Below, piece after piece: positions 34,653 to 46,353 of a stretch of 64,000 bases of DNA. The notes under the pieces are model-generated. The model saw nothing but the letters and a program-made list of their open reading frames with translations. It made no database searches and was not told the DNA's origin. The stretch is from assembly GCF_002854065.1 (NCBI RefSeq), contig NZ_CP024147.1. One strand, given 5' to 3'. The position numbers and the translations under genes were made by a program. Position 1 is the first letter of the stretch. Every line of letters starts with the position of its first letter. Source of the stretch: Escherichia coli (lineage in GTDB: Bacteria > Pseudomonadota > Gammaproteobacteria > Enterobacterales > Enterobacteriaceae).

Positions 34653-34811
34653 TATTTCTCTCCTCATAGATTTATGCCTGTAATGATCACGCTAAAATGT
34701 ATTCGCTGAAAGTAGGTTTAACCTGTTGCATTAATTGCTAAAAGCTATAACTGTTAAACACAATACAGTGAAAAGTTTTAGACTGAAGGCTCACTTTGCA
34801 GAGGGAAGCGT

Positions 34812-42416: not shown

Positions 42417-43544
42417 ATGCAGTGCGCACTTTACGACGCGGGTCGCTGTCGTTCCTGTCAGTGGATAACGCAGCCGATTCCAGAGCAACTCTCCGCTAAA
42501 ACCGCCGATCTTAAAAATCTGCTCGCCGATTTTCCGGTTGAGGAATGGTGCGCGCCGGTGTCAGGCCCAGAACAAGGGTTTCGTAATAAAGCCAAAATGG
42601 TGGTGAGTGGTAGCGTTGAAAAACCCCTGCTCGGTATGCTGCATCGCGACGGCACACCGGAAGACCTTTGTGACTGCCCGCTTTATCCTGCCTCATTTGC
42701 GCCCGTTTTTGCGGCGCTAAAACCGTTTATCGCCCGAGCGGGGTTAACGCCCTACAACGTGGCGCGTAAGCGTGGCGAACTGAAATACATTCTGCTGACC
42801 GAAAGCCAGAGCGATGGCGGCATGATGCTGCGCTTTGTACTGCGTTCTGATACCAAGCTGGCGCAACTGCGTAAGGCGCTGCCGTGGTTACACGAACAAC
42901 TACCGCAGCTGAAAGTTATTACCGTCAATATTCAGCCGGTACATATGGCGATTATGGAAGGGGAGACGGAGATCTACCTGACCGAACAACAGGCGCTGGC
43001 AGAGCGTTTTAACGATGTGCCGCTGTGGATCCGTCCGCAAAGTTTCTTCCAGACTAATCCGGCGGTCGCCAGCCAGCTGTACGCTACCGCGCGCGACTGG
43101 GTACGACAGCTGCCGGTTAAACATATGTGGGATCTGTTCTGCGGTGTGGGGGGCTTTGGTTTACACTGCGCGACGCCTGACATGCAGTTAACCGGGATCG
43201 AAATTGCGCCAGAGGCCATTGCCTGTGCAAAGCAGTCAGCTGCTGAACTGGGCTTAACGCGTTTGCAATTTCAGGCGCTGGACTCCACTCAGTTTGCCAC
43301 CGCTCAGGGGGAGGTGCCGGAGCTGGTGCTGGTTAACCCGCCGCGCCGCGGCATTGGTAAACCGCTGTGTGATTATCTCTCAACGATGGCACCGCGTTTT
43401 ATCATCTACTCCAGCTGTAACGCCCAAACTATGGCGAAAGATATCCGAGAACTGCCTGGTTATCGCATTGAACGGGTGCAGCTTTTCGATATGTTCCCTC
43501 ACACCGCGCATTATGAAGTGTTGACGCTGCTGGTAAAAATGTAA
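42417..43544 (+). CDS. rlmC: 23S rRNA (uracil747-C5)-methyltransferase
   Basis: 375 aa; N-terminal Cys cluster and SAM-MTase domain. Confidence 0.9.
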
Positions 43545-43597
43545 ATACATCATTCAAATCAATATCACCTCGGCATACATCCATCCAAAATAATAAT

Positions 43598-43634
43598 CGT
43601 GATCGATCGATTAATAATAACCGATCGATCACGG
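43598..43634. promoter_or_regulatory. 12-bp-arm perfect palindrome containing four GATC sites (terminator and/or operator)
   Basis: cgtgatcgatcg-attaataataac-cgatcgatcacg downstream of rlmC, upstream of PTS operon. Confidence 0.4.
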
Positions 43635-44104
43635 TTATATATTGCTCTATTTTTGCAAATCAAATCACAAATAATCAAATAAGATCTTTAATTGAACTGT
43701 TTTGATTACTACAGTGCACTTACCGAATACATACAGAGGCATTGCTTAGCGAAACACAAAATTTCCTGAGACATTATTAACGTCAGCAGAAGGTTCATGC
43801 ATTGACAACGGAAATGTACGCTTATGGAGGGCGTTCCGACGATGTTTGCCAAATTCATAGATGTTATTCAAACGTTTTTAACTGAACCGGCAATTTTAAT
43901 TGGTTTGCTGGTGGGTATTGGTTATGCCCTTGATAAGAAATCGCCAATAAAAATTATTACCGGCATGGTCAGCGCCATGGTGGGATTAATGATGGTGTTA
44001 TTTGGTGGTTTCCAGTTTTCCGCAACATTTAAACCGGTAGCAGAAGCCGGGTGATGCTGCCAACTTACTGATTTAGTGTATGATGGTGTTTTTGAGGTGC
44101 TCCA

Positions 44105-44380
44105 GTGGCTTCTGTTTCTATCAGCTGTCCCTCCTGTTCAGCTACTGACGGGGTGGTGCGTAACGGCAAAAGCACTGCCGGACATCAGCGCTATCTCTGC
44201 TCTCACTGCCGTAAAACATGGCAACTGCAGTTCACTTACACCGCTTCTCAACCCGGTACGCACCAGAAAATCATTGATATGGCCATGAATGGCGTTGGAT
44301 GCCGGGCAACCGCCCGCATTATGGGCGTTGGCCTCAACACGATTTTCCGCCATTTAAAAAACTCAGGCCGCAGTCGGTAA
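44105..44380 (+). CDS. insA: IS1 InsA
   Basis: 91 aa with CxxC zinc finger; part of IS1. Confidence 0.9.
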
Positions 44381-44802
44381 CCTCGCGCATACAGCCGGGC
44401 AGTGACGTCATCGTCTGCGCGGAAATGGACGAACAGTGGGGATACGTCGGGGCTAAATCGCGCCAGCGCTGGCTGTTTTACGCGTATGACAGGCTCCGGA
44501 AGACGGTTGTTGCGCACGTATTCGGTGAACGCACTATGGCGACGCTGGGGCGTCTTATGAGCCTGCTGTCACCCTTTGACGTGGTGATATGGATGACGGA
44601 TGGCTGGCCGCTGTATGAATCCCGCCTGAAGGGAAAGCTGCACGTAATCAGCAAGCGATATACGCAGCGAATTGAGCGGCATAACCTGAATCTGAGGCAG
44701 CACCTGGCACGGCTGGGACGGAAGTCGCTGTCGTTCTCAAAATCGGTGGAGCTGCATGACAAAGTCATCGGGCATTATCTGAACATAAAACACTATCAAT
44801 AA
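44299..44802 (+). CDS. insB: IS1 InsB (transposase catalytic portion, expressed as InsAB by -1 frameshift)
   Basis: 167 aa ORF; A6C slippery motif TTAAAAAAC at 44354-44362. Confidence 0.9.
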
Positions 44803-45965
44803 GTTGGAGTCATTACCCAGAAGCCGTAAGTAAAGCCTATGGTGTTCACGGATATTTAATGGATTCCTACGCAATGAAAGCGGCAACGCAAATTGCATTG
44901 GGGGATAATTTTGGTTATGTCGGGTATGTATTTGTACTGGCGTTTTTTACCAACCTGCTGCTGGTATTATTTGGTCGGTATACTGGTGCCAAAGGGATAT
45001 TTTTGACAGGGAATACCGGTGTTTCACATTCTCAGGCGGTATTATGGTTGATTGTCTTTTGGCTGGGTTTTAGCTGGACTACATCCATTATTATTGCCGG
45101 AATATTAACGGGTGTATTCTGGGCGTTCTTCACCACGCTCATTGTTAAGCCCATTGCCAAAGTTACCAAAGATGCCGGTTTTACCATTGCTCATAACCAG
45201 ATGTTGGGATTGTGGTTTTTCTCCAAATTCGCCCATAAATTTGGTGACCCTGAAAAGCACGATGCTGAAAACCTGAAACTTCCCGGGTGGCTGGCGATTT
45301 TTAACCATAACGTAACGGCTATCGCCATTGTGATGACGCTGTTTGTCGGTGGTTTCTTGCTATCAACGGGTATCGATAATGTCCAGTTAATGGCGAAAGG
45401 CAAGCCCTGGTACATCTATATCATCAACCTTGGCTTACAGTTCTCCATGTATATGGTCATTCTGCTGCAGGGTGTGCGCATGATGGTGGGCGAAATTAAC
45501 GGTTCGTTTAAAGGCTGGCAAGATCGCTTTATTCCTAACGCTATTCCTGCTGTCGATGTTGCAGCGCTGTTACCTTTTTCACCCAATGCCACAACGTTAG
45601 GCTTCGTCTTCTGTACTTTTGGCACCATTTTTTCGATGGGGATCTTATTACTGGTTCACAGCCCAATTATGGTATTGCCTGGCTTTGTACCTCTGTTTTT
45701 CTCTGGCGGTCCAATTGGCGTATTAGCAAACCGCATGGGCGGATACCGTTCCGTAATTATCTGTACGTTCTTGCTGGGTATTATTCAGACCTTTGGTACG
45801 GTGTGGGCTATTCCGTTAACCGGGCTTGCTGAAAATGGCGTCGGCTGGACAGGAATATTTGACTGGGCAACCGTATGGCCTGCTATTTGTGAAGTTCTGA
45901 AATTTATCGCTGCAACATTCCATCTTGGTCCTTACGCGGGTTAATTAAATATTAAGGGTTTAAAA

Positions 45966-46286: not shown

Positions 46287-46353
46287 GGTAGGGCGTAATG
46301 AGAGCGATTATTCTGCTGTTCGATAGTCTGAATAAACGGGTAATGACTCCAAC

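Follow-up and report, generated by a model that had tools for sequence, protein, structure and literature searches.

Three kinds of described element bear on the palindrome reported here. Intrinsic terminators and hairpins that stabilize mRNA 3ʹ ends have a stable stem-loop soon after a stop codon, flanked by A-rich sequence on the 5ʹ side and U-rich sequence on the 3ʹ side, and their pairing is held by compensatory change. REP/BIME elements are intergenic palindromes that can end a convergent gene pair and may form a hairpin at an mRNA 3ʹ end. OxyR/Dam switches, such as those of agn43/flu, gtr (P22 and Salmonella) and opvAB (Salmonella), have a cluster of GATC sites in the AT-rich regulatory region of horizontally acquired genes. 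The geometry of the half-sites has been described for gtr and opvAB (PMC2909390, PMC4856963); in gtr they have the layout GATC-N9-GATC, with the GATC pairs 13 nt apart (PMC2909390), and the agn43 sequence of K-12 itself shows this layout.

Between the rlmC stop codon and the start of a PTS EIIC gene, the window (the whole stretch of 64,000 nucleotides of E. coli DNA that was analysed) carries a palindrome that shares with each of these systems the traits listed above, the half-site layout excepted (Table 1). The original prediction described perfect 12-bp arms, a 12-nt spacer and four GATC sites, all of which were confirmed by reading out the sequence; its right end, put at 43634, was one base too far and lies at 43633. 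The four GATCs form two GATCGATC octamers, 22 bp apart, and the spacer is partly self-complementary in E. coli. Symmetry extends well past the perfect arms, to arms of 21 nt that are 90% complementary with 4 nt between them. The palindrome core lies 54 nt past the rlmC stop and 190 nt ahead of the IIC ATG (43824), and the extended hairpin starts 49 nt past the stop of this co-directional gene. The AT-rich character ascribed to the surrounding sequence also stands, since the rlmC-EIIC intergenic region has a G+C content of 33.7%, against 50.5% for the window.

Of perfect inverted repeats whose arms are 12 bp or longer and whose spacer does not exceed 20 nt, the window contains four distinct ones, against 0.07 expected per window from first-order Markov simulations. 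Each of the other three (at 509, 48566 and 49458) lies immediately 3ʹ of a gene end. Nowhere else in the window do four GATCs fall within 40 bp, and such clusters were seen in 5.7% of simulated windows. As RNA, the plus-strand hairpin folds with -28.1 kcal/mol (z = -5.75); as DNA, the palindrome folds with -17.3 kcal/mol (z = -7.2). The palindrome is real and beyond chance.

Table 1. Features in and around the palindrome, in window coordinates.
Feature	Position	Strand	Remarks
rlmC stop codon	43542..43544	+	ORF 42417..43544, 375 aa; rlmC from RefSeq annotation, identical CUWW06 region
Variable AT-rich spacer, rlmC stop to hairpin	43545..43592	+	diverged with indels in O145, Escherichia sp. E1V33 and E. 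whittamii; diverged in Salmonella
A-rich tract ccaaaataataat	43585..43597	-	tail ATTATTATTT when read leftward; AATAATAA invariant
Extended hairpin, 21-nt arms and 4-nt loop	43593..43638	+	arms 43593-43613 / 43618-43638; RNA fold, complementarity
Evolutionarily conserved stem, 17 pairs	43593-43609 with 43622-43638	+	ten-variant alignment
Left perfect 12-bp arm cgtgatcgatcg	43598-43609		GATC starts at 43601 and 43605
12-nt spacer between perfect arms attaataataac	43610-43621
Right perfect 12-bp arm cgatcgatcacg	43622-43633		GATC starts at 43623 and 43627
T/A-rich tail gttatatattgctc	43634..43647	+	imperfect U-tract; TTATATATT invariant in 10/10 variants (columns 51-58)
Promoter/operator-like block, PTS operon	43648..43716	+	conserved in five genera and metagenome loci
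CRP-like sequence TGCAAATCAAATCACA	43654-43669	+	half-sites match 8/10
Inverted repeat TAATCAAA / TTTGATTA	43672-79 / 43701-08	+	within conserved block
Fifth GATC (AAGATCTT)	43683-43686		inside promoter block; Escherichia only, AATCTT in other genera
-10-like TACAGT	43710-43715	+	within conserved block
5ʹ part of PTS EIIC gene (EIIC-GAT / ascorbate-type)	43824..44049	+	cut by IS1 at 44050
IS1, first copy	44050-44817		splits EIIC gene; target duplication CAGAAGCCG
IS1, second copy	46339-47106		inverted; splits sulfatase gene; duplication GAATAAACG
Inverted repeat with perfect 14-bp arms, TTTGCCGGAGTGGG..CCCACTCCGGCAAA	48566-48599		between sulfatase stop and artJ stop
IS1, third copy	54662-55429

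Comparison with the rlmC-artJ intergenic region of K-12 settled whether the palindrome belongs to the core genome or to the islet that follows it: it is islet-borne. K-12 has at the same spot a different hairpin of its own after rlmC (GCCGCAtgtGCGGC), then REP-like sequences and then the artJ hairpin; the K-12 rlmC hairpin also lacks a clean U-tract. Unlike REP/BIME elements, the palindrome is single-copy, and it has no sequence similarity to REP. We found it in 566 of 5426 complete E. coli genomes, always together with an islet encoding IIC, IIB and a sulfatase, and at one locus per carrier genome, with no second locus matched. Islet-free genomes are similar only up to query positions 135-138, 7-10 nt short of the rlmC stop; core DNA meets the islet within the final rlmC codons, 54 bp from the palindrome. 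Islet carriers (O157:H7, O145 and others) have a 3.5-kb insert with genes for EIIC (of the EIIC-GAT/ascorbate type), IIB and the sulfatase, and no regulator, IIA, recombinase, integrase or transposase was found in its coding content. This distribution indicates that the palindrome came in with the PTS-sulfatase islet, as its leftmost part. At the other side of the islet, the repeat with 14-bp arms forms the right end and resembles a bidirectional terminator.

A search of phages for the palindrome gave no match. The plasmid collection gave two matches, both large E. coli replicons (of 0.73 and 4.9 Mb) with a variant of the same palindrome. An origin as a dispersed repeat or mobile element was rejected, as there are no further copies in E. 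coli genomes, phages or plasmids. Membership of a known RNA family was rejected as well: searching Rfam with the hairpin returned generic hairpin matches only, far below gathering scores.

Because IS1 copies interrupt both the EIIC gene and the sulfatase gene, the islet in our window is a pseudogene cluster, and the operon is dead here. From the number of IS1 copies, the host may be Shigella-like or an IS-expanded E. coli.

How the palindrome has evolved was read from regions upstream of EIIC taken from other E. coli lineages, from the GTDB set (one genome per species) and from metagenome contigs, the last selected as carriers of the conserved promoter block. The resulting alignment comprises ten distinct variants from Escherichia, Salmonella IIIa and IIIb, and metagenomes. 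Across these ten variants, 99.4% of the cells in the 17 stem pairs are paired, and seven of the 17 pairs have changed on both sides. The observed stem pairing and covariation were reached by none of 500 shuffles, and moving the partner by 1-3 columns left only 14-46% of cells paired. The pair 43599:43632, for example, is G-C in most E. coli, A-T in Salmonella, and G.T in the WP7/CB8671 lineage (about 150 genomes fall in that identity band), and the pair 43597:43634 is T.G, C-G, T-A or A-T, depending on the lineage. A Salmonella-like metagenome contig (L054) has the arms ATAAATACAATCAATTG and CAATTGGTTGTATTTAT, with five further double substitutions, one wobble pair and not a single GATC. Its hairpin is more AT-rich still (-19.9 kcal/mol), and about 40% of its arm sequence has diverged with pairing kept, on a contig that is 98.3% identical to another such contig outside a diverged patch of about 130 bp.

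The GATC sites have been lost elsewhere too. S. diarizonae has three, the fourth having disappeared through a G-to-A change, and strain KK05-19, whose 80-90% identity band contains three genomes, has three after a 4-bp deletion removed one unit. The loop varies freely in sequence and in length: it has 12 nt here, and that of Salmonella has 11 nt and differs for the most part. The PT62 variant has no loop and forms an almost perfect palindrome of 46 bp. The palindrome is present only in Escherichia and Salmonella loci, where rlmC lies upstream and is co-directional, and it is absent from Silvania, Leclercia and Yokenella, where operon and promoter block are both retained. In these alignments, evolution has preserved the pairing or symmetry, and neither the sequence of the arms nor the Dam sites. 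Covariation alone cannot separate RNA pairing from symmetry at the DNA level or from templated mutation of a quasi-palindrome. We also looked in the alignments for the strand of action, using single-transition mismatches compatible with wobble pairing; these were about evenly split, and neither strand was favoured.

Sequence to the left of the palindrome is variable in its own right. The spacer of about 35 bp between rlmC and the palindrome (seen also in L005, L006 and L013) comes in two strongly differing forms within Escherichia, one of the O157 type and one common to O145, E1V33 and E. whittamii, with identity resuming exactly at AAAATAATAATCG. When L054 is compared with contig L068, the diverged patch lies at about 4590-4720 of L054 (oriented), with 62 differences in 150 columns, and the contigs are about 98-99% identical elsewhere. 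Starting about 35 nt before the end of rlmC and reaching as far as the palindrome's right end, the patch has the appearance of a recombinant mosaic at the islet's left edge. In L054 the EIIC reading frame is apparently split (374 + 102 aa).

The original prediction offered three roles for the palindrome: terminator of rlmC, operator of the PTS operon, or element associated with the islet junction. A hairpin at the end of rlmC is the best supported of these because of the covariation in the stem and the correlation of the hairpin with the orientation of the upstream gene. The hairpin is the only strong one between rlmC and the PTS promoter block. Wherever the gene upstream of the block is co-directional, there is a clean hairpin on the plus strand, with -20 to -26 kcal/mol: this is the case for rlmC in Escherichia, Salmonella and L054, and in Yokenella, where the co-directional upstream gene is that for a histidine kinase, an unrelated GC-rich hairpin is found. 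Where the upstream gene is divergent (Silvania, Leclercia, L041 and L046), we found no clean single stem-loop on the plus strand; L046 has GC-rich long-range pairing upstream. A terminator or insulator predicts such a correlation, which here comprises only two independent co-directional contexts, among roughly five independent ones in all.

On the plus strand the hairpin is not a canonical intrinsic terminator. A consensus terminator scan called a site on the minus strand only (43633..43598, tail ATTATTATTT, with 7 G-C among 16 pairs). The plus-strand tail GTTATATATT fails the scan with the stem at full length, and the U-tract that sets the palindrome apart from intrinsic terminators is interrupted, GUUAUAUAUU being broken up by A residues. 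Other differences from intrinsic terminators are the unusual length of the stem (17-21 bp), its core of 50% G+C, and arms that derive from (GATC)2 runs. The invariant flanks AATAATAA and TTATATATT fit a bidirectional design and do not prove it. In favour of the hairpin reading, the palindrome in our window is identical to the O157 type, although two IS1 insertions destroy the PTS operon; K-12, too, has a hairpin after rlmC, of another sequence, and the three other perfect inverted repeats of the window likewise close genes at their 3ʹ side. Our reading of the literature on ECs0940-0942 and on Term-seq in EHEC gave no usable expression or 3ʹ-end data for the locus.

We consider it fairly likely that the palindrome is a 3ʹ-end hairpin of rlmC that terminates or stabilizes the transcript and insulates the PTS promoter. 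The islet would have replaced the K-12-type rlmC-artJ intergenic region, with its rlmC hairpin and REP sequences, in place, and the new hairpin would have taken over from the K-12 rlmC hairpin. RNA polymerase leaving rlmC would transcribe the extended hairpin, and the nascent RNA is predicted to fold into a stem of 17-21 bp with about -26 kcal/mol, with the A-rich tract on its 5ʹ side and the U/A-rich tract on its 3ʹ side. This stem could partly stop transcription, or block 3ʹ-exonucleases at the end of the mRNA, or both, and would thereby prevent read-through from rlmC into the regulated PTS promoter, 15-80 bp downstream. The four GATCs would be a by-product of the (GATC)2 run in each arm: the region is rich in GATC because the arms are runs of a self-complementary tetranucleotide, a property that also explains the slippage deletion. 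We infer that the constraint most likely acts at the level of RNA, and that it serves termination, insulation or protection of the 3ʹ end. The element is most likely a new but ordinary gene-end hairpin or bidirectional terminator.

Two other arrangements in which the palindrome would take part in transcription were tried and rejected. A leader terminator controlled by a BglG-type antiterminator was set aside: no antiterminator is encoded in the islet, and the palindrome precedes the conserved promoter block. The candidate for a promoter overlapping the palindrome (TCGGCA-16-AATAAT, 43570-43597) falls within the spacer that is not conserved, and shuffles give matches as good.

A different explanation is that the palindrome has no selected function, its symmetry being maintained by template switching within a quasi-palindrome and by slippage of the (GATC)n runs. 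Templated mutation of a quasi-palindrome could match the two arms without selection, the GATC unit missing from KK05-19 shows that slippage occurs, the PT62 variant has become almost perfectly symmetrical, and the hairpin lacks the canonical tail of a terminator. Mutation of this kind leaves several observations aside: the hairpin keeps its position and stem length across Escherichia and Salmonella lineages, survives in the patch of L054 that is otherwise about 40% diverged, and correlates with a co-directional upstream gene. We regard an element without function as unlikely, though deserving of some weight.

Conservation is far better in the promoter block than in the palindrome, and the block is the part that all genera have in common. 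We found it in Escherichia, Salmonella subsp. arizonae and diarizonae, Silvania, Leclercia, Yokenella and two metagenome lineages. It contains repeated AATCA motifs in addition to the elements in Table 1. If transcription starts near 43722, the CRP-like site would be centred at -61.5, which is class I geometry. The block is probably where the true promoter and operator of the PTS operon lie. Neighbouring genes vary with genus. In Yokenella regensburgei (L010, 3499-5690), the PTS-sulfatase operon is directly preceded, in the same orientation, by genes for an OmpR-type response regulator and a histidine kinase; in Silvania and Leclercia its upstream neighbour is a divergent arylsulfotransferase gene. 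These neighbours hint at a pathway for a sulfated substrate, and at a possible dedicated regulator that is absent from the E. coli islet.

The block bears directly on the suggestion that the palindrome is itself a sequence-specific operator of the PTS operon, bound by a dimeric regulator. A perfect dyad upstream of an operon in need of regulation, with a self-symmetric GATCGATC in each arm and the octamers two helical turns apart, has the look of such a site; the islet encodes no regulator. Nonetheless, this role fits poorly, because the arms diverge while pairing is kept and because the palindrome is absent from the other genera. Three genera without the palindrome have retained the block, whose own inverted repeat is the obvious operator candidate. 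The change in spacer length between 12 and 11 nt, and the fact that the palindrome has no second site among E. coli genomes, phages and plasmids, also speak against an operator, and we think this role improbable. Nucleation of H-NS was considered as well: the palindrome centre, TCGATTAATA, resembles the high-affinity H-NS motif tCGATAAATT.

The GATC sites raise the question of an epigenetic switch as in agn43, gtr and opvAB, operated by OxyR and Dam or by another methylation-sensitive protein. A regulator would bind the unmethylated arms and block Dam, so that the PTS-sulfatase operon would be heritably ON or OFF. The palindrome does have four GATCs, their paired arrangement recalling gtr and opvAB, and the operon downstream was acquired horizontally; the palindrome also has ATCGATCGAT and TAATAATAACC in common with the OxyR site of K-12 agn43 (10-nt and 11-nt strings, checked in the sequence). 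Matches to the OxyR half-site reach 7/10 at 43593 and 43624, and 8/10 in L054; the half-sites (43593-43607 and 43624-43638) each overlap two GATCs. As a positive control for the OxyR consensus scan we used the grxA-ybjC intergenic region (34712-34748), which scores 17/20, the best in the window; grxA is regulated by OxyR. With the canonical spacing of OxyR sites (a gap of 7 or 17), the palindrome scores at best 12/20, and this is matched or beaten at 54 and 42 window positions. A score of 14/20 requires a non-canonical gap of 16, which is 15 in Salmonella, and the half-site centres are 31 bp apart in E. coli and 30 bp apart in Salmonella. The palindrome has no GATC-N9-GATC half-site layout, unlike gtr and agn43. 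Consensus scoring gave no canonical site, and the switch was rejected.

Evolutionary evidence points the same way. Every variable position in the arms is an "n" or an already mismatched position of ATAGnTnnnAnCTAT, as would suit an OxyR site, but this concordance is confounded by GC-to-AT bias, and the OxyR model does not explain symmetric covariation at the "n" positions, which points to pairing rather than to contacts with a protein. The GATCs are not conserved among orthologous loci; with one lineage that has the hairpin without GATC and two in which one GATC is lost, the idea of control by methylation is weakened. Silvania, Leclercia and Yokenella have kept the operon and its promoter block without the palindrome. 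In contrast to the known OxyR/Dam switches, the palindrome combines weak half-sites and non-canonical spacing with a position upstream of, and not over, the conserved promoter-like block. The literature on unmethylated GATCs in O157 and on ECs0940-0942 yielded nothing usable, and no methylome data for the locus. A switch of this kind seems to us very unlikely. Equally doubtful is a combined reading for Escherichia and Salmonella IIIa and IIIb, in which an ancestral gene-end hairpin gained (GATC)2 runs and doubles as a Dam-sensitive site, giving heterogeneous or phase-variable PTS-sulfatase expression; the binder would be an OxyR-like factor at non-canonical spacing, or SeqA on the GATC pairs spaced by 22 bp.

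The palindrome is close to the left boundary of the islet, next to a hypervariable, mosaic segment on its left, but that it is a junction element (whether att site, recombination site or mobile-element end) is extremely unlikely, as it is single-copy and lies 54 bp inside a junction located in the last rlmC codons, no direct or inverted repeat of at least 8 bp is common to both islet ends, and the islet has no integrase or transposase.

What is the significance of the rlmC-end hairpin? The left end of the PTS-sulfatase islet between rlmC and artJ (ECs0940-0942 in O157:H7 Sakai, where the palindrome core is at 1,024,987-1,025,022) can now be placed. The rlmC transcription unit would be closed by a hairpin that the islet brought along, and beyond annotation the significance of this is small. 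If the reading as a switch were true, a sugar-uptake operon would join the few known Dam-dependent epigenetic switches. The locus also carries a caution for the search for such switches, in that a hairpin whose arms repeat a self-complementary tetranucleotide can produce a striking cluster of GATC sites incidentally.
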